From: Candidatus Thorarchaeota archaeon
GTDB taxonomy: Archaea; Asgardarchaeota; Thorarchaeia; Thorarchaeales; Thorarchaeaceae
Assembly (NCBI GenBank): GCA_020348985.1
Contig: CP070761.1
Location: 56,449 to 97,922 of the forward strand
DNA length: 41,474 nucleotides
Direction of reading: 5' to 3'
Below, piece by piece: positions 16,843 through 25,456 of the stretch; within the stretch, counting starts at the first letter, position 1; each line of letters begins with the position of its first letter. Below the pieces are notes generated by a model. It was not told the DNA's origin and did no database searches. It was given only the letters and a program-made list of their open reading frames with translations. The translations under genes and the position numbers were made by a program.

Positions 16843-19800
16843 TCATTCCCAATCAGTAGGCAAATCGTCAAGTAACTTCTGTAGTCTTCGTCGAACAAAG
16901 ACCCCCACCAGTGCAACGAGAGCTCCACCACCAATGACAGGCGCTGAGCCAGCATCCATCAGTATCGGTTCAGTTGAGTCAGTCACTATTAGCACAAATT
17001 CGAAGGAACTCATATTGATCACCGGCAAGCCAGAAACGGTTGCAGTTAGGAGGTAGTCGCCTGATAATGGTAGAACAACAAAGAGTGTAATCTCTGAGTC
17101 GATGCCGCATTCTGAGTGAGTCTCTGTTTCGTAGCGATTGGGTCCTGAAATGACTACGCTTAGGTCTCCTGACCACTCCTGTGCAAGCCCTCCGACCTGA
17201 ACCTTGAAAGCGAGTGAACAGTTTTCTCCACGGAACGCATTTTCCACACTAGGAACAAGAACCTCAACACGTGGAGATATGGCGATTATAGAGCGAACGG
17301 AACACCGAGCGAATACGTCAGTGCCAGGAAAGGTCGCATTTAGAGCGATGTGTCCTGCAGGTAGTGAACTAAGGGAAATTATGGCTGAACCTCTCAAGTC
17401 GGTAGTAACATTCCTTCCGGCCACCACCGTCCCATTCCGCGCGAATTCCAGTTCGACGAGCGCTCCCACTATACGACTGTTGCCGCCCGAAAGTACGACT
17501 CTAATTTCGATTGAATCGCCATAGTCAGAGTAATCGTCGACCTCTAGCTCGATCAAAGATTCGAGTCTGGCAAGTATGCTCAAAACAAAGAAGCTTTGGC
17601 TTGTGTAGGCATCTCCAGGATAGCTAACTTCAAGGGAGTAAGTACCTGCTAGGGATGGAATCCATTGTATTGTTACTGTACCGTTCTCAGCAGACAAATC
17701 AACATACGGCCGAAGCGGGCTGCCCAGGATTTCTAATCCCGAGGGATTGTATAGACTAGCTGTGACAATTATGCCGAGGATCCTTTCATTCAGTGAATCA
17801 GAAATCCGTAGAGTGATTGAGTGAAGGTCGCCCACGAGACCAGAAAGAACGGTGCTACTTACGGATATCTTGCTAGATGTGGTGACATTGAATGTGAAGA
17901 ATCCCGAGCAGCCAATCCTGGAGCTTGAATTACGGACTATTGCAGTGAATACGTAGGAGCCAACCGGCAAGGCGTATAGGAGGATAGAGAGATTCGTTGA
18001 GTGCGCCATCAATCTCGACGCAAGACTCACATTTCCAAATGGCCCAATAAGACTGAGCGCCAGGTCGAGGGAAACAGGAGGAATAACGAGACTAACCTCA
18101 TCTAGTATCTCGATTGCGACTGTGGCATTCTCAGATCGTTTCCATGATAGTTGTTCGGGAAAACGGAGTTCGCTTGTTCCTAAAGCAAACAGCACAACCG
18201 CGGCTGTGGAAGAACGATAATGCGTAATCTCATCAAAGAGAAAGACCACGGTGTAGTTTCCCATTCTCGCAAAGACAATCTCCACTGTCTCGGGCAATTG
18301 TCCTGTTTGCGTGAAGCTACCAAGCTTAATCAACCCAGCAGATTCATGGTATACTTCGTATCGAATTGTGAATCCCTCGAGAGGAGTTCCAGCTGAGTCT
18401 TCAAGTAGCACCGAGAAAACGGCCTCGGTGACATTCGCAACTATTTCACCAGATTCCAGGTGTTGGGCACGAAGTACTGTCCCAAACCGTACGTCTACCG
18501 ATCTGCTCACGGTGCTGGGCAGATAAACACCCACTCCGGTGAATGTAGTCCATATTTCCCAAAGACCTTCGGTATCAATCTGAGATACCCATGTGACTAG
18601 TCCACTTGTGTTCGTGGTGAGTGCAACAGGACCTATCCGAAGTGCCCCAGGACCATCAAAGAGGAATTGAATGTCACATCCTACAAGTGGATTTCCGTAG
18701 AAGTCTCGAAGGGAGACCGTGAACTGAAGAGTGTCTCCCACAGATAATTCAGATACTAGTCCGGAGTACTCCAAGATAGAGGGCGAGTGAACGGTGTGTA
18801 GGTCCTCTGAGGTGAATGAATGAACTGTGGGTGACCCAGACGAAACCACAACAAGACGATGAAGACCTGCAGTAGTTGGCGCGAACGAGACGTTGGCTGA
18901 CCCTGCCTGAACAGTCAGCATGACTGAATCAGTCCAAATGCCTAGTCGGATAGGCACATCATATGGATCAAAGAGGGCGACATGGACATCCAGACTATCA
19001 ACGACATAACCAAGCTCATCTGTCAGAATCAAAGAAATCGTGACGGGGCCATCCAGTGAGACAGGTGTTGGACTAAGGACAGTCTGAATATTACATTCAG
19101 TCATAACAGTCATCTGACCTAGTTCATCGCCACCAACAAGGTACTGATCACCCAAAGGTGCCGCTTGAACGACCAGGAGTCCATGATGATGAACGGCCAT
19201 ATAGTTGACAGAGACATGTCCTACCCCGTCAGTCCGGGAGACCGTTGTCCAAAGTGGAACCAAGTCCGGCGCGAGAACCTCGAACAAAATGTCAACGGAA
19301 CAAACAACTCCACCTGCGATCAGTGTGTAGTTCAGTGTAACGCTCTCGAACAAATCCAAGGTCTGACTGCTCAATTGGAGAGATCCATCGACAATCTCGA
19401 GAATGGAAATGGTAGTAAGAGTTGTGTTATACAAGTAGTGAGCGTCTGATGTATGTCTAACTTGGATTGTTGCTAGGCCACGTACAGCTGGGTCCCAGTG
19501 TACCATCTGCAACCCGTTCAATGAAATGAACTGTGAAGTGAAGACAGTGATATCGTTCAATGTTATGGACACATTCACCACCCGTCCAGCAATCGCCACT
19601 CCAAGCGCATCTAACAGTCCGATATCCAACTGCACTGTATTGCCAAGAAGCGAGGTTGGCGGAGAAATCAAGACTATTCTCGGTGTAACGTAGACTCGTT
19701 GGATACGAGTAGCTTCAGCTGACGAATTGAGCGAATCCCCGGAGTAGAAAGCTCTGATGATGTAATCGTCAACTTCGTGAAAATCATGTGCCAACGCAGC

Positions 19801-22800
19801 TCGGCCATCGATCCCTGTCGTAAGGACTGCAATCAGTGCCAATGAACCATTGGATCTATCTATTGTCAAATCAATCGAAGACTCTTCAAGTGGGTTGCCT
19901 TCCCAGTCCATGAGAGTCACAATGATGCTCAGCGTTGTGCCTTGTTCTACGGGCTGTCCGTTTAGACTAAGTTGAAGTCCTGTCAGACCAAGAACATCCT
20001 CACTGGTCTCGCTCCAACAGGCCAGAAGCCATCCCTGCGAAGCCATCTCTATAGCTACAAGAACGGAACCAGGCGCGCTTAGAATTAGGTCGAAGGAGAT
20101 CCTACCGTCATCATCTGTAGTGTTCGCTGTCTCCAGCAAAACCACTGAATCAAGAGTGACAGTCGTGACTAGAGCAACCCCAGAGATCCCGTTCATGGCG
20201 ATATCATAGACAGCAGCAACGAGAGTGCAAATGCTCGGGGCTGTCGGCTGAGTGACCCATTCCATGATGATGATCGGGAGTTCATATACATCAGTGCTGG
20301 TTGAGAACGAATCAGTGTCGTACCAGCCCTGCCTAGGTGCATTCGCATCAATTATGTGTGCACCCCTTCTTGACGGAATCCAAGTTACGTTGAAGACTCC
20401 GTCAACAGTCACTCCGGTTTCGTTGAGAAGCAATTGGCCAGTTTCCAATGACAATTCAATCGACACCATCAGACCAGAAATCGAGGTTCCGCCATGATCT
20501 TGTGCCTCAACAGCCACCCATCCCAATGATGATACCTCATTCAATGAAGAAGTCAGGATTGTCAAGGTCACTGGTACCCTTGTTTCCGAAGTCGTTGTGA
20601 CAGCCGCGGCACCTCGGCTCAGTGTTCCAGCAAATATGGCCTCCAGTCTGTATGTGCCGGGGGAGGTTGCAAACCACTGATATGATACGAATCCGGTAGC
20701 GTTGGTGAGGAGGTCTTCTTCGTACACTATCAGTGAGGGTAGTAGCGTGATTCTAATAGCACTTGTAGAACCTGCTATCGGCATGCCAATCGAGTCCACA
20801 AGCTGCGCTTCAAAGCTGTAGCCGAGACCTACATTTGTATCCTGAGGAATTCCCACTGCTATCAGTTCCGAGTAGCTCCACGACACAACCAAACCCTGTG
20901 ATGATGATGGATTCAGAAGTGAGGAACCAAGAAATGAGGCAGATAGACCGTAAACTCCATTCTGTGCCAGCTGCAATGAGAAAGAAACATACCCACTCGA
21001 GTTTGTCACGAGGACGTCATCGAAGAGAACTGAAGAGGTCGGAGTTGTTATCCTGAGCGAGATTGGGAATCCTTCGAGGGCAGTTTCACTTTCGTCTACA
21101 AGCTCCACACTAATCGTATGGGTGGAATACTGATCGTGAGTGCCGGTATTGTGCCAGATGATTATGGAGTTCTCACTTATGATCAGAATCCCTGAGTGAA
21201 TGCTTGAGTCCAAAGTACCATTTCTGGCAAACTTGATAAGAAACGTGTAGTTCCCGCGGAGGCAGGGATTCCAAACAAACTGAGTAGATTGGTCTTGTGA
21301 TACTTTGCTATCAGTGAATACAGAGTGAGTTGAGTTATTCACATCAAGTGTGACTACCTGCCCCTGTAGTATGGAGTCATTGGATTGAAGATGAAGCGAC
21401 CAATCTATGAGTACATCTAATCCAACATGCCCGCTAATAGATGACTGTGCTAGAATATACGTGGGATGAGGGGCTTCTAACGTGACCTCTCTACCCAGTA
21501 TAAGGGGTCCGCACCACGTCCTAACGAGCTCAACTGTGATATTGTAGCTACCTGGGTCGAAATCAATTGTAGGAACAGACAGAGCAAATGGAGATGTTTC
21601 ATTTGGATAGAGCCATTCCTGGTACGAGATCTCATCACCCAATCTGACACGCAGATCTGTCAGACCTGCGTCTGCGCCTGTTTCAAGTGTCCAAGATACT
21701 GTCCCATTGAGTCTGTCACCTATCAATGCAGGAGGGGCAGTGAGTTCAAGCAATCCTTGTAGGCTTCCTGTGACATTGACTTGAATCCTGGAGAATGCCC
21801 TGACATCACCATAGTGTGAGGTCATGAAACTAAGGCTGCACTCACCCAGCCACTCCTTTTTGCTAGGCAATTGCAAATCAAGCGAATCTACGTTCGTAAC
21901 ATTGTCAAATCGGAACCAAGAATCAAATCCGTTTACATAGACAGTATGCAACTGGTCTGTTGATGTGTTTGCCACACTAACCGAAAGTGTCTGACCAATC
22001 TCCGCCACATCGTTGGCGTTGACGGAGAGAAGAGTTCCTTGAATCTCTCTCATCGGTATCCGGAGTCCCAAGATTGAAGCCATCTCAAGAACATCAGCTG
22101 TAAACACGGGCTGCCAGAGAGATGTTGTGTTGTACCACCCTTCTGTAAAGGAAGAACTGAGCTCTTCGAGAACACGAGTCTCATTGATTGTGCCGAGGGA
22201 GACTGAGAAGGACGAATTCAGCAGAGCAAGAGTAGCAACATCTCTGGATAACAACCAAAGATCATCGTACTGAACCCTTGAGCTAATCTGTGACTCTATC
22301 TCGGAGGCAATTGATTCGTTGATCAAATCAAGTCGAAAGGCGGCTCTAGTGCAGAGCCAGTCGATAGCTTGCTGATGTCCAGCAAATGGACGAAGCGTCC
22401 AAGAAGACATTTCCCAAGTTCCCGATGAATAGTCCACCATTACGACTGATTCTAGCTGATTCCTATAGTTAATCGTGCTGAGTTTGTCGATGATTGAGAG
22501 TGCCTCTACTGCGGCAACTGTATATTGCATGTGCTCAGTACCCATGTACTGAGTGGGTCTGTAGTGTCCTGAAGCGTGCTGAGACACTCCGATATACGAC
22601 GAGGTCTCGCTGACTCTGGCGGCTGAGAGTGTAATGCCTGACCATTTTGCAGTACTTACTGCTAAAAGTTGGGCCCAGGTACTTTGATCATAATACTGCA
22701 TCAATGAATACTCAGGGGGTATGAACGGTGTTGTGTTTGGATACTGCTCCCACCTAGAGAACGATTCGAGATATTTCTCAAGTAGACTCTTGTTTATCTC

Positions 22801-24639
22801 AGGGTGCGAGTAGGAAGCTGACTTTACTGCCCAGCTGGTCCACATGAGACTGGGCACTGGTTCCATATTCTCGAATCCCACATCCGTTTTACAGAGATCG
22901 ACAAAGGAAACCAGGCCGGCAGACACTTCAGACCCTGGGTCGATTCTTGAAAGGCACTGTGCGACCAAGGATGATTCTCTTGTCTTACCTACACCATCAT
23001 TTGCATGCAGACCAAAACCACCAGATGGCAGCTGCGCATCTGAAAGCCAAGCCAGCCCTGAAGTCTGATTCTCGGAATTGAGGGTCCCAAGGATATGCAT
23101 CGTGGATAGCGCATAGCTCGTGGAGAGGACAACTTCAGAAGATGGATATACGGAATCATAGTACGAGCCGTCAGCATTCGCCGTCTCCTCAATTATCCAC
23201 TCTGTGAGCTTGTTTGGATCATTGTGAGTTTCACCCAAGATATCAAGTGAGATAACGAATTGAGCAGCATATGTGTTCTTGGGGAAGAAGCTATAAGGAT
23301 TGACAGCAACGCCTCCCCAGTATGACGAATCGTTTGATTTTGCTCCAGTTACAACACACGAGCGTAGCCAGTTCTCTAAGTCACTTGTGTCTATGGCTCC
23401 CAATGCTGAAGCTGCGTTGAGTGCTTCAATAACAGTATAAGTCGTACTGATATCATTCGCGAACCCTCCATCGACTCCTTGCCGAGCTGCGAGATAGTTC
23501 ACTACTTTCGCCTCATCAAAAGACGAAGAGATGCCCATTGCCTCCATCAGCCATAGTCCACGAGCTGTCGCGCTAAATGTCAATGAGTAGTCTAGAGAAT
23601 TACGGAAACCAGCCTCCGTGTCGGATTCTTCATAGAGAGAAATGAGGATATCCTCAACAAGCTTCTGATTGTAGCTTGTCCATTGTGCTTTCTCAGTGTC
23701 GTTCAAGAGCGAATGGATGGAGCGAACTGAGAAATATGCTGCATCCACTGTGGGCTCGTGGACGTAAGAGAATGCACCTGAGATTGCATCAGATGGGCCT
23801 GACTGCAAGTCAGCAAGGACGGAGGATGTAGGACTCTCGCGTATGCTGGAGGCAAACCCAACTATATTTGCGACAAAATCTACCCCGCGTGTCGTCAGGA
23901 GGGAAGGATCCTCCAACCCTATCAACAGAGCATCAAGAGGCCATGAGTCAAATCGAAGTGAAGATAGTTTCTGAGGATTGGAAGATCCGGTAAGATTGAC
24001 CAATCGGGACTTGGCTGACTGAATCATGTCTACTGGCAGAGGAATTGGTGCCTCATTTGTTAGAAGAGCCCCCTCCTCTATTGAGTTTGGATAGCTGAGA
24101 AAGACTGCATCCTCATATTCTGATGATTTGATTAGCTGATTGTCAGAGAAGGCAGTCTTTGAGGGTGGACTTTGGTCCCTGAGACGATGGAGAATCCATG
24201 AAGCGCGTCCCATTAGAACCAATGGAGCGCTACTGAGAACAAGAGTGTTGATGAATGCTTCATCAACTTCAGTACCGTTGGAGGAGCCTATACTCGCGTC
24301 GAGAATCACAACAGGCACTTTCTCCAACAGATATGGATTCGCCGCAATCTCGTCGCAGTTCAACAGAGTAGCTACAATCCCCTCTTTCGTGAGTAGTTCC
24401 GTCATATCTAGTCCGTGGCCAGGAATTGAAGAACCAAGAAGCTCCACAACAACATACTTGTTCATTTCGACCTCAGTTCCTTGGATTCCTGAGATTACAA
24501 AGCTTGAATCAAGAGCATCAGGTCTCAATCCAATTAGGTGGCTTTGTGCTACCACCGTCTGCGATGAGTGGCTTGGGGGCAAAAACGCTATAACGAGTAA
24601 TAGTGCAAGCAGAGCAAACATTGGATTCCTCGAATTCAA
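16843..24639 (-). CDS. Giant membrane-anchored cell-surface protein: prenyltransferase/squalene-cyclase-like alpha/alpha repeats followed by tandem Ig-like domains
   Basis: Signal-peptide-like N-terminus. Repeats YLAARQGVDGGF, WLSDAQLPSGGFG, ANADGSY, SQHASGHY. Then many ~100-aa beta-rich units with D..G..I/L.G, T...G and G.Y...A.F.G patterns. C-terminal TM plus an RRR tail. GGGAGGG lies 6 nt before TTG. Confidence 0.85.
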   Translation of the reverse strand: MNSRNPMFALLALLLVIAFLPPSHSSQTVVAQSHLIGLRPDALDSSFVISGIQGTEVEMNKYVVVELLGSSIPGHGLDMTELLTKEGIVATLLNCDEIAANPYLLEKVPVVILDASIGSSNGTEVDEAFINTLVLSSAPLVLMGRASWILHRLRDQSPPSKTAFSDNQLIKSSEYEDAVFLSYPNSIEEGALLTNEAPIPLPVDMIQSAKSRLVNLTGSSNPQKLSSLRFDSWPLDALLIGLEDPSLLTTRGVDFVANIVGFASSIRESPTSSVLADLQSGPSDAISGAFSYVHEPTVDAAYFSVRSIHSLLNDTEKAQWTSYNQKLVEDILISLYEESDTEAGFRNSLDYSLTFSATARGLWLMEAMGISSSFDEAKVVNYLAARQGVDGGFANDISTTYTVIEALNAASALGAIDTSDLENWLRSCVVTGAKSNDSSYWGGVAVNPYSFFPKNTYAAQFVISLDILGETHNDPNKLTEWIIEETANADGSYYDSVYPSSEVVLSTSYALSTMHILGTLNSENQTSGLAWLSDAQLPSGGFGLHANDGVGKTRESSLVAQCLSRIDPGSEVSAGLVSFVDLCKTDVGFENMEPVPSLMWTSWAVKSASYSHPEINKSLLEKYLESFSRWEQYPNTTPFIPPEYSLMQYYDQSTWAQLLAVSTAKWSGITLSAARVSETSSYIGVSQHASGHYRPTQYMGTEHMQYTVAAVEALSIIDKLSTINYRNQLESVVMVDYSSGTWEMSSWTLRPFAGHQQAIDWLCTRAAFRLDLINESIASEIESQISSRVQYDDLWLLSRDVATLALLNSSFSVSLGTINETRVLEELSSSFTEGWYNTTSLWQPVFTADVLEMASILGLRIPMREIQGTLLSVNANDVAEIGQTLSVSVANTSTDQLHTVYVNGFDSWFRFDNVTNVDSLDLQLPSKKEWLGECSLSFMTSHYGDVRAFSRIQVNVTGSLQGLLELTAPPALIGDRLNGTVSWTLETGADAGLTDLRVRLGDEISYQEWLYPNETSPFALSVPTIDFDPGSYNITVELVRTWCGPLILGREVTLEAPHPTYILAQSSISGHVGLDVLIDWSLHLQSNDSILQGQVVTLDVNNSTHSVFTDSKVSQDQSTQFVWNPCLRGNYTFLIKFARNGTLDSSIHSGILIISENSIIIWHNTGTHDQYSTHTISVELVDESETALEGFPISLRITTPTSSVLFDDVLVTNSSGYVSFSLQLAQNGVYGLSASFLGSSLLNPSSSQGLVVSWSYSELIAVGIPQDTNVGLGYSFEAQLVDSIGMPIAGSTSAIRITLLPSLIVYEEDLLTNATGFVSYQWFATSPGTYRLEAIFAGTLSRGAAAVTTTSETRVPVTLTILTSSLNEVSSLGWVAVEAQDHGGTSISGLMVSIELSLETGQLLLNETGVTVDGVFNVTWIPSRRGAHIIDANAPRQGWYDTDSFSTSTDVYELPIIIMEWVTQPTAPSICTLVAAVYDIAMNGISGVALVTTVTLDSVVLLETANTTDDDGRISFDLILSAPGSVLVAIEMASQGWLLACWSETSEDVLGLTGLQLSLNGQPVEQGTTLSIIVTLMDWEGNPLEESSIDLTIDRSNGSLALIAVLTTGIDGRAALAHDFHEVDDYIIRAFYSGDSLNSSAEATRIQRVYVTPRIVLISPPTSLLGNTVQLDIGLLDALGVAIAGRVVNVSITLNDITVFTSQFISLNGLQMVHWDPAVRGLATIQVRHTSDAHYLYNTTLTTISILEIVDGSLQLSSQTLDLFESVTLNYTLIAGGVVCSVDILFEVLAPDLVPLWTTVSRTDGVGHVSVNYMAVHHHGLLVVQAAPLGDQYLVGGDELGQMTVMTECNIQTVLSPTPVSLDGPVTISLILTDELGYVVDSLDVHVALFDPYDVPIRLGIWTDSVMLTVQAGSANVSFAPTTAGLHRLVVVSSGSPTVHSFTSEDLHTVHSPSILEYSGLVSELSVGDTLQFTVSLRDFYGNPLVGCDIQFLFDGPGALRIGPVALTTNTSGLVTWVSQIDTEGLWEIWTTFTGVGVYLPSTVSRSVDVRFGTVLRAQHLESGEIVANVTEAVFSVLLEDSAGTPLEGFTIRYEVYHESAGLIKLGSFTQTGQLPETVEIVFARMGNYTVVFLFDEITHYRSSTAAVVLFALGTSELRFPEQLSWKRSENATVAIEILDEVSLVIPPVSLDLALSLIGPFGNVSLASRLMAHSTNLSILLYALPVGSYVFTAIVRNSSSRIGCSGFFTFNVTTSSKISVSSTVLSGLVGDLHSITLRISDSLNERILGIIVTASLYNPSGLEILGSPLRPYVDLSAENGTVTIQWIPSLAGTYSLEVSYPGDAYTSQSFFVLSILARLESLIELEVDDYSDYGDSIEIRVVLSGGNSRIVGALVELEFARNGTVVAGRNVTTDLRGSAIISLSSLPAGHIALNATFPGTDVFARCSVRSIIAISPRVEVLVPSVENAFRGENCSLAFKVQVGGLAQEWSGDLSVVISGPNRYETETHSECGIDSEITLFVVLPLSGDYLLTATVSGLPVINMSSFEFVLIVTDSTEPILMDAGSAPVIGGGALVALVGVFVRRRLQKLLDDLPTDWE

Positions 24640-24668
24640 GGAAAGCCCTCCCAGATTCCGGTAAAGGT

Positions 24669-24806
24669 GCCCCGAAGTCCGAACCCATCCTTACAGACAT
24701 GTAACGCGGATACCTCTGAAGTGGGCAATGTTGAACTCGCTGGTTCACAGACCAGAGGGAAGAATACAGAATTCATTTGGGTGTGGCATTGGGTTCGGAC
24801 CGGGAC
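24669..24806 (-). ncRNA. Putative structured cis-regulatory RNA leader of the giant surface protein gene (family unknown)
   Basis: A perfect 11-bp inverted repeat (24677-24687 / 24790-24800), extended by 6 more pairs past a 2-nt bulge, encloses nested hairpins (24691-24704; 24713-24718/24753-24758; 24732-24747). Confidence 0.55.
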
Positions 24807-24817
24807 TTGCTTGTTCG

Positions 24818-25456
24818 TCAAAGTGGCATCACCATGAGCTGAGTGTATAGCACAGCCAGAAGGGCCAAGCTGACGAGTAGTTCAACTGATCCACTTCTTG
24901 GTCGTCTCTTGAGAGCTGCACCAAGCAAGGATATGTCGCCGCTTCGCAGTGAGGTGTTGAACAGGACACCCAGTGCGACATACCAGCTAAGAAGGGAAGT
25001 CGGAAACTCGAGACTGATTAGACCAGGGAGAATGAGCAAGAAAAGACCCAAGTATGTTGATAATACAACTGTGATGAACATCGACAGGATTATCACGGAA
25101 ACCCTTGGAGGTTTCTCCACGTTTAGGAACAGATTCATCTCGCCATATGTGGTCGATGTCCCGACACTATCAATGTCGATGCCCAAGCTCTTGCTTACTG
25201 CATACCTTAATCCGACATAGATGATTGAGGGAATGAAGAATAGGATTGACAGGAAAGTCATTGCTGGATTTCGCGTCCAATCCTCAAACTCTCTTTTCTG
25301 ACCACTTAGAAGGATAACCCCGCGTAGAACTGTCACGGTACCAAGGACAAGCGGAGCAATCCTCGCTGAGAACAGAAGAATCGCCAGTGCAAGAGTAATC
25401 AGATTGGTGTTCATTTGCAGGTTAGCTCCGTGAGAATCGTGTAACGATTGCATCAA
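24818..25456 (-). CDS. Hypothetical integral membrane protein (possibly a degenerate M50/DUF3267-like fold)
   Basis: About 5 TM helices. The layout resembles membrane metallopeptidases, but there is no HExxH. Confidence 0.65.
   Translation of the reverse strand: MMQSLHDSHGANLQMNTNLITLALAILLFSARIAPLVLGTVTVLRGVILLSGQKREFEDWTRNPAMTFLSILFFIPSIIYVGLRYAVSKSLGIDIDSVGTSTTYGEMNLFLNVEKPPRVSVIILSMFITVVLSTYLGLFLLILPGLISLEFPTSLLSWYVALGVLFNTSLRSGDISLLGAALKRRPRSGSVELLVSLALLAVLYTQLMVMPL

Follow-up and report, generated by a model that had tools for sequence, protein, structure and literature searches.

The gap between two co-oriented genes of a Thorarchaeota genome, one coding for a membrane protein and the other for a giant surface protein, very probably contains a functional RNA element of the operon to which both genes belong, formed by the coding strand and conserved in relatives. 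The genome comparisons on which this conclusion is based indicate a new RNA motif, restricted to one family of Thorarchaeota, that accompanies the two-gene arrangement. We think that this motif is more likely to be a cutting or insulating signal within a two-gene mRNA than a riboswitch. Its base resembles the acceptor end of a tRNA, and we propose tentatively, as something possible rather than probable, that it is a processing signal of the RNase P type which separates the two cistrons. A sequence-only reading of this DNA had already suggested that the gap holds either a novel archaeal cis-regulatory RNA or an RNA-processing element. A conserved coding-strand RNA element is indeed there, and processing is the branch of that suggestion which we prefer, but the riboswitch flavour that came with it has to be given up, since nothing supports a riboswitch.

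The junction and the fold of its sequence

The window is the whole stretch of DNA that was analysed (41,474 nt), and the features discussed below are located within it in Table 1. The element fills the gap from the stop codon of the upstream cistron to the start codon of the giant gene. Its closing stem is as the sequence-only reading had it, with 17 pairs (one of them U.G), a 2-nt bulge and an end 16 nt before the GGGAGGG; we find this stem in both the minimum free energy (MFE) and the centroid folds. We accept the TTG as the probable start of the giant gene and the GGGAGGG as its probable ribosome-binding site, since a protein that begins at this TTG carries a signal peptide with a basic n-region, as in the orthologues, and since the Shine-Dalgarno (SD) spacing is 6 nt.

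Table 1. Location of the element, its parts and the two flanking genes in the window
Feature	Position	Strand	Remarks
Whole gap, 178 nt	24640-24817	minus	From the stop of the upstream ORF to the TTG of the giant gene
Upstream cistron, ORF of 212 aa	24818-25456	minus	Several hydrophobic segments; without Pfam family
Stop codon TGA of the upstream cistron	24818-24820	minus
A-rich linker, 11 nt	24807-24817	minus	From stop codon to stem; base at -1 is A
Closing stem, 5' arm, 17 nt	24790-24806	minus	Starts with the conserved G-U-C-C
Enclosed loop domain, 102 nt	24688-24789	minus	Holds the three small arms described earlier
C/A-rich motif in the loop	24779-24786	minus	Partly conserved
Closing stem, 3' arm, 19 nt	24669-24687	minus	2-nt bulge at 24675-24676
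Unpaired A-C-C	24666-24668	minus	Adjoins the last base pair; form of a tRNA discriminator plus CC; pyrimidine-rich tract next
SD-like GGGAGGG	24646-24652	minus	6 nt 5' of the TTG
Start codon TTG of the giant gene, probable	24637-24639	minus	Alternative: ATG at 24619-24621
Downstream cistron, surface protein of ~2,598 aa	16843-24639	minus	Big_1, Big_3_5, prenyltransferase-like alpha/alpha toroid

Taken as a single sequence, the element exceeds chance only weakly, and to call it "highly structured", as had been done, would be an overstatement. The MFE of the whole 178 nt is -56.4 kcal/mol, against -51.1 +/- 4.65 kcal/mol in dinucleotide shuffles (z-score -1.15), and 26 out of 200 shuffled sequences fold as well or better. 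The closing helix fares better within its own stretch, where its score is reached by only 5 out of 1000 first-order Markov simulations, but it is ordinary at the scale of the genome, which contains 134 perfect inverted repeats of at least 11 bp with loops of 30-200 nt, compared with 128 seed hits in a shuffled genome. A genome scan for long-range hairpins of the form "G-helix-ACC" gave 79 matches, about the level expected by chance, and none of these is like the element. The three inner arms described earlier do exist as complementary stretches; however, two of them are formed in the MFE structure while the middle one is folded in another way, and they are not conserved even in G002, a genome of the same genus.

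The element belongs to no RNA family that we could recognise, in agreement with the sequence-only reading. Rfam gave no match in the whole window at gathering scores, none in the region 24300-25200 at E-values up to 10, and none in eight orthologous loci at E-values up to 1, and ARAGORN detected no tRNA anywhere in the window. The element is also single-copy in its own 3.16-Mb genome, so it is not a multicopy repeat of the MITE type. In the literature, at the level of titles and abstracts, we found no description of it.

Distribution and conservation in the family

A blastn search with positions 24600-24860 against 40 relatives returned only chance matches of about 20 nt, and homologues were therefore sought through the flanking proteins. 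Relatives of the first 400 amino acids of the giant protein are present in 32 of the 41 family genomes searched in this way, and relatives of the upstream membrane protein in 31, where the gene always adjoins the giant gene, directly upstream and in the same orientation (the pair is thus syntenic in 31/41). In 19 of these 31 genomes the two genes are separated by 121-196 nt (a count that includes G006, whose start codon was not placed), and in 18 of the 31 a stem at the same relative position closes the spacer, 17 of them being long spacers recognised by their long-range helix and the last one, G006, by a match to the covariance model described below. The spacer of G014, 142 nt long, has no recognisable stem. 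The element is absent from 11 of the 31 genomes, in which the gap is -4 (eight genomes), -1 (one) or +2 nt (two); these close or overlapping pairs, an arrangement that fits termination-reinitiation coupling, represent the alternative state of this junction (eight at -4, three from -1 to +2 nt), and a 4-nt gene overlap is what is usually seen where the element is missing. One more syntenic genome has a gap of 50 nt.

In G001, which belongs to the genus of the window, the membrane gene is lacking, and the giant gene is preceded by about 470 nt of AT-rich non-coding DNA without the element. This case, together with the 11 close or overlapping pairs, indicates that the element accompanies the two-gene arrangement and not the giant gene as such. 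The earlier idea that it is tied to the giant gene is correct in the sense that it sits before that gene, but it is the bicistronic arrangement that it appears to follow.

Whole spacers were poorly aligned by MAFFT, and a subset of 11 spacers was used as the seed of a covariance model (R1), whose RNAalifold consensus consists of 4 bp, a 1x3 internal loop and then 9 bp. This model recovered three genomes that were all outside the seed (G020, G005 and G006). In large genome searches, run under the stricter filters of Infernal, it matches 33 of 86 genomes of the family at E <= 0.01, nearly always with one copy per genome, and none of 124 genomes from 26 other families of the phylum. Of its 37 hits that were placed on their loci, 34 are located in the gap from the membrane gene to the giant gene, in the orientation of both. 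The divergent-arm versions of genera g5 and g8 were missed by the model and found by their position and helix; with these forms added to the model matches, the element is present in 8 of the 16 genera of the family.

The three remaining matches are of different kinds. One, which falls within a ribosomal-protein gene but antisense to it, we take as a chance match; another, in G062, is partial. The third, on contig C43 of G002, is a convincing second copy with arms like those of the window, located upstream of a gene for a TPR protein, of which we found no orthologue when other genomes of the family were searched.

In a tree of the N-terminal part of the giant protein, the element is found on both sides of the midpoint root (the deep nodes being poorly supported), and the presence of the element requires at least four changes of state, that of the overlap at least six. 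This suggests an old element that would have been replaced repeatedly by gene overlap.

The relatives also show covariation, for which the sequence-only reading had proposed to test. In the model-fitted alignment of the 37 hits, standard pairs occupy 93.2% of the cells, 9 of the 13 pairs have changes on both sides (43 cells), and none of 500 column shuffles reaches any of these measures, a statistic that overstates independence, given the relatedness of the sequences and an alignment that follows the structure. When the partner is slid by one to three columns, pairing drops to 24-59%. Compensatory changes thus keep the helix paired in eight or more genera, all from a single Thorarchaeota family.

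We also have to ask on which strand, and in which molecule, this helix is formed. The core stems of 38 instances comprise 470 Watson-Crick pairs, 37 G.U and 8 A.C pairs when read on the coding strand, in a count for which the helix finder treated G.U and A.C alike. In most instances the stem has an irregularity 4-8 bp above its base, with the extra bases nearly always on the 3' strand. The excess of G.U over A.C and this one-sided bulge favour a helix formed by the coding-strand RNA over a symmetric site in double-stranded DNA. The folding energy of the whole element is better for the antisense strand in 37 of the 38 instances, but this is due to the G-poor composition of the loop and not to the stem, and we replaced this measure by the count of G.U and A.C pairs for that reason.

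The rival idea, that the arms are inverted repeats acting at the DNA level (an invertible promoter, a site like the attC of integrons, a MITE remnant or paired operator sites), can call upon the near-palindromic form, with CCCGGG at its centre, that each arm takes in some genera, and upon the bulged imperfect repeats of attC sites themselves. Besides the strand bias just described, it has to face the observations that the two arms can still pair with one another in cases where neither is itself palindromic, that there is one copy per genome without flanking direct repeats or arrays, and that no promoter-like AT-rich box is seen by eye in the loop. No inverted joint is present in the contigs of four DNA runs, whose depth is so low that this weighs little. 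We consider the whole idea very improbable. More specifically, a MITE or transposon remnant was rejected on copy number (nearly always one per genome) and on the lack of direct repeats flanking the stem, and an attC site was rejected as well, the element falling outside the definition of such sites. One of the four DNA runs carries a single SNP in the loop.

The base of the stem is kept in sequence as well as in structure. Among 34 aligned sequences, the first four columns of the helix are G (31), U (34), C (33) and C (33), and the columns of its 3' end are G (34), G (32), A (32) and C (32). The helix is preceded, in an A-rich 5' flank, by U (18), A (14) or G (2), never by C, and it is followed by A (30), C (34), C (34), a pyrimidine (33) and U (29). 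Two of the four divergent-arm versions (G046 and G021) have a different tail. The helix is 8-9 bp long in genus g10 and 13-19 bp long in the others.

These almost invariant positions are a difficulty for another explanation, a passive hairpin that stabilises or insulates, by blocking exonucleases or by compacting the spacer, without any specific endonuclease signal (in variants of this explanation, it would provide a 3' end for the upstream message or a 5' end for the downstream one). In its favour one can cite a conserved and GC-rich helix of considerable length that separates two cistrons, its absence where the genes overlap, and the analogy with the REP-type and similar hairpins that serve as intercistronic stabilisers in bacterial operons. 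Like these, the element is a stable stem located between genes that are transcribed together, and could allow the two parts of an operon to meet different fates. Unlike REP-type hairpins, however, the element is single-copy and orthologous, its loop is much larger, and its stem base and tail are sequence-specific. A hairpin with a passive role could vary freely in sequence, yet the first four pairs and the A-C-C are nearly invariant across genera, in spite of flanking proteins that are only 35-55% identical to those of the window, and the loop is constrained too. We consider this explanation quite unlikely.

The loop is 50-100 nt long, rich in C (0.34, pooled) and poor in G (0.145), whereas each of these bases makes up about 0.24 of the genome. 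A C/A-rich heptamer is found near its 5' side, at a similar offset, in three or four of the eight genera; beyond this there is no loop core common to all genera and no multi-arm junction, only the stem base and its flanks being kept across genera. Within lineages the situation is different: in close pairs of genomes, identity is higher in the spacer than at third codon positions of the flanking genes (0.92/0.78, 0.80/0.62, 0.66/0.40 and 0.64/0.38, the lower values being inflated by gapped alignment), so that the loop is under constraint inside each lineage, in spite of its divergence from one lineage to another.

Such a loop is difficult to reconcile with a riboswitch, i.e. with a ligand-binding aptamer that would control the giant gene. 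The location upstream of a costly gene and the alternative pairings that are possible for the ribosome-binding site speak for this idea, and the element shares with riboswitches and with SD-sequestering leaders a structured RNA before the start codon and an anti-SD-like tract near the SD. On the other hand, it has no conserved aptamer core, neither junction nor core nucleotides of the loop being shared by the genera, the inner arms are not kept either, Rfam is silent on both the window and the eight orthologous loci, and the z-score of the whole element is the modest one given above. We find a riboswitch scarcely credible, and the label "riboswitch-like" should be dropped.

The G-poor, C-rich loop with its repeated C-rich motifs speaks for another reading, in which the element is a small RNA gene whose product of about 110-160 nt would be released from the operon transcript and would act in trans (it might pair with ribosome-binding sites rich in G, for instance, or serve as a sponge for a C-binding protein). 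The slower evolution of the loop relative to synonymous-like sites in close pairs and the second copy at an unrelated locus, before the TPR-protein gene of G002, also speak for this. However, the loop sequence is not kept between genera, and 34 of 37 hits occupy one and the same gene junction. We consider a dedicated small RNA gene improbable.

Among known small RNAs, the Y RNAs bound by Ro60/Rsr are reminiscent of the element: their two ends pair in a conserved stem with a bulge, the loop enclosed by this stem is pyrimidine-rich, and they are about 100-150 nt long. Unlike them, the element is embedded in an operon. We rejected a Y RNA, since no TROVE/Ro protein (PF05731) was found in the genome (86% complete) and there was no Rfam Y RNA hit.

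Likeness to a tRNA acceptor end

We think that the conserved base of the hairpin can be understood as an imitation of the acceptor end of a tRNA: it combines a G at +1, a U or A at -1, a helix of at least 12 bp, an unpaired A-C-C and a pyrimidine-rich trailer, and it may mark a site at which the tRNA-processing machinery, RNase P in the first place, cuts the transcript. If this cut fell 5' of the G, it would separate a short upstream message from a downstream message of 7.8 kb; the latter would then start with a base-paired hairpin resistant to exonucleases and would be translated from its own SD site. In lineages without the element, the two genes would instead be expressed jointly, through the 4-nt overlap that couples their translation. 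The loop would probably add a second function, either as a platform for a binding protein or as part of a released RNA of about 150 nt; a plain cutting signal would leave the constraint on the loop unaccounted for.

The tRNA genes of the same genome can be compared with the element. All 21 tRNA genes found by ARAGORN encode N-C-C-A and are followed by pyrimidine-rich trailers; the base at -1 is T in 10 of them, A in 7, G in 2 and C in 2. The end of the 3' arm of the window element, with its tail, is identical over 9 nt to the 3' end of a tRNA-Glu gene. An archaeal RNase P RNA is encoded in the genome (RF00373, 160 bits), with a GGGUA in the region of the P15/16 internal loop, which we take to be the stretch that binds the CC of the substrate.

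Several precedents can be cited. A review from 2024 (PMC11143913) describes the cleavage by RNase P of model substrates reduced to an acceptor/T-stem hairpin and the reliance of the enzyme on contact with the RCCA, and mentions the precursor of 4.5S RNA and some mRNAs as further substrates; a paper on Haloferax (PMC4326828) describes tRNA-like "t-elements" of archaea cut by RNase P and tRNase Z. Our element shares with the t-elements of Haloferax volcanii and with the 4.5S RNA precursor a helix whose first base is G, with U or A at -1, an unpaired discriminator-like A and then C-C after the helix, a position between two functional RNAs of a single transcript, and a host with an RNA-based RNase P. 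It differs from them in having neither T-arm nor cloverleaf, in a tail without the final A, in a helix that bears a 3'-strand bulge and closes the large loop, in its location between protein-coding cistrons, and in that its cleavage is a prediction.

This likeness should not be pushed too far. There is no T-loop, and neither ARAGORN nor the tRNA and tRNA-like families of Rfam (E-values up to 10) match the element. The fourth base of the tail is C or U in 33 of 34 sequences, which gives A-C-C-Y rather than a full RCCA. The bulge on the 3' strand is not located where a tRNA departs from a continuous helix, and the variable length of the helix is also at odds with tRNA geometry. Indeed, instead of some 12 bp stacked coaxially under a cap that resembles a T-loop, we see helices of 8-19 bp that close a loop of 50-100 nt. 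Furthermore, the conservation of the A-C-C-Y-Y tail has a second possible cause, since it resembles the anti-SD end of 16S rRNA and is paired with the SD in many of the predicted structures.

Two other types of signal that could end or cut a transcript at this place were rejected. The element is no bulge-helix-bulge motif, in which a 4-bp helix lies between two 3-nt bulges on opposite strands: its single irregularity is usually of 2 nt and is located on the 3' strand, at 4-8 bp above the base, and an outer helix is lacking. It is no intrinsic terminator either: a scan limited to bacterial-type sites gave no terminator-like site at the element, and there is no conserved T run after the stem.

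A bolder version of the RNase P proposal can be formulated, namely a "tRNA punctuation" of a protein-coding operon in Thorarchaeota, by which a C-rich stem-loop of about 150 nt would be set free as an RNA with its own function. This RNA may be a trans-acting regulator or a protein sponge, and perhaps a nuclease also cuts on its 3' side. We offer this version as a speculation with rather long odds against it.

The interest of such proposals comes from the organisms concerned. Asgard archaea are the closest prokaryotic relatives of eukaryotes, and to our knowledge only a small number of RNAs that act in cis or undergo processing have been described in them. Should the acceptor-like base prove to be a true RNase P signal, tRNA-processing enzymes would shape a protein-coding operon in this lineage, a theme that is otherwise familiar from mitochondria, long non-coding RNAs of eukaryotes and a small set of bacterial operons. 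Moreover, "tRNA punctuation", if true, would be an Asgard parallel to the mascRNA-type processing of eukaryotes.

Translation of the giant gene

The proximity of the element to the ribosome-binding site of the giant gene leads to another explanation, in which it is a cis-acting translational operator: the hairpin base and its pyrimidine-rich tail would bind a protein or mask the SD, and would thus tune the output of the giant protein separately. The conservation of the stem base and tail in sequence, beyond what structure requires, suggests a specific reader. The anti-SD-like tail pairs with the SD in many predicted folds, and the stem is followed by a strong SD (an exact GGAGG upstream of the start) in 23 of the 38 instances.

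The predicted probability that the SD is paired reaches 0.94 in the window copy and up to 0.99 in others, which at first sight is in line with the alternative pairing of the ribosome-binding site considered in the sequence-only reading. Nevertheless, the mean for the full element is 0.61, compared with 0.58 for 98 ordinary SD-led genes of the genome, folded in a shorter window of -60 to +15. When the element is folded in that short window its value rises to 0.77, but this figure is too high, since the shortened sequence leaves the 3' arm without its partner. The predicted sequestration of the SD is thus no greater than in ordinary genes of the genome, and this comparison does not support a masked ribosome-binding site. 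The distance from stem to start is also variable (13-52 nt in all but one instance), and no candidate binding protein was found. All in all, we regard an operator as unlikely, and as less likely than the RNase P-type signal that we prefer.

Finally, the element bears on how translation of the two genes is linked. Even without the RNase P mechanism, the locus is a clean natural experiment, in which a 4-nt overlap can be compared with a structured spacer of about 150 nt that has its own ribosome-binding site. Huber et al. (2023; PMC10666635) report that even about 20 nt between two genes nearly abolishes termination-reinitiation coupling. Set against this limit, a spacing of 121-196 nt suggests that the element marks an uncoupled arrangement in which the giant gene relies on its own SD. 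We rejected the possibility that the stem rescues coupling, in the manner of a ribosome shunt, on the distances that would still separate it from both genes (10-32 nt from stop to stem and 13-52 nt from stem to start, which when added up are far over the limit of about 20 nt), and the presence of a strong SD also speaks against it.

The giant protein and the small membrane protein

Besides its Ig-like and toroid domains (see the table), the giant surface protein gives weak matches to MG2 and invasin-D3, a domain make-up reminiscent of that of alpha-2-macroglobulin-like proteins. It is always partnered by the small membrane protein, the two genes often overlapping by 4 nt, and this constant pairing suggests that the two proteins work together. 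We think that translation of the giant gene probably begins at a TTG rather than at the first ATG: the TTG start yields an n-region with arginine, and the Shine-Dalgarno sequence (GGGAGGG) is located 6 nt upstream of it. TTG or GTG starts appear to be used in several orthologues of the giant gene too.

Features of the element and of the giant gene, with strand where assigned
Feature	Location	Position	Strand
Giant protein: Big_1 and Big_3_5 Ig-like domains, prenyltransferase-type alpha/alpha toroid	window	16843-24639	-
First ATG of giant gene	window	24619-24621	
TTG, probable start (first base 24639)	window	24637-24639	
Shine-Dalgarno sequence	window	24646-24652	
A>G variant, run X4	window	24751	+
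C/A-rich loop heptamer	window	24779-24786	-
Extra element copy	G002, contig C43 (L098)	793-906	-

The junction in relatives and an extra copy of the element

In the same-genus relative G001 (locus L031, contig C63), the membrane gene was not found, and upstream of the giant gene lie about 470 nt of AT-rich, non-coding sequence together with a divergent gene; this locus is therefore rearranged. Another member of the family, G014 (locus L026), retains a long spacer of 142 nt between the membrane and giant genes, in which neither a closing stem nor a conserved motif at the base can be recognised. This spacer may represent a decayed or replaced element.

The same-genus relative G002 carries an extra copy of the hairpin element at an unrelated locus, with arms and tail resembling those of the window element. 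A gene encoding a 159-aa TPR-repeat protein lies about 100 nt downstream of this copy, and no orthologue of it was found among the other 40 family genomes searched. The origin of contig C43 is uncertain, because G002 is rated 7% contaminated.

Assembly and tRNA genes

The genome that contains the window is represented by a single "contig", actually a scaffold interrupted by 131 runs of N that add up to 13,100 N. ARAGORN reports only 21 tRNA genes in it, all with an encoded CCA; those missing from this set may contain introns or lie within the gaps.

The loop of the element

The C/A-rich heptamer of the loop occurs at the same offset in two other genera (g5 and g6), and it repeats the sequence made by the last bases of the stem together with the unpaired tail. 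This hints at a single recognition or pairing motif present in two copies, one in the loop and one at the stem end and tail. Elsewhere in the loop, one DNA sequencing run (X4) shows an A>G change; this variant within the population does not fall in the stem.
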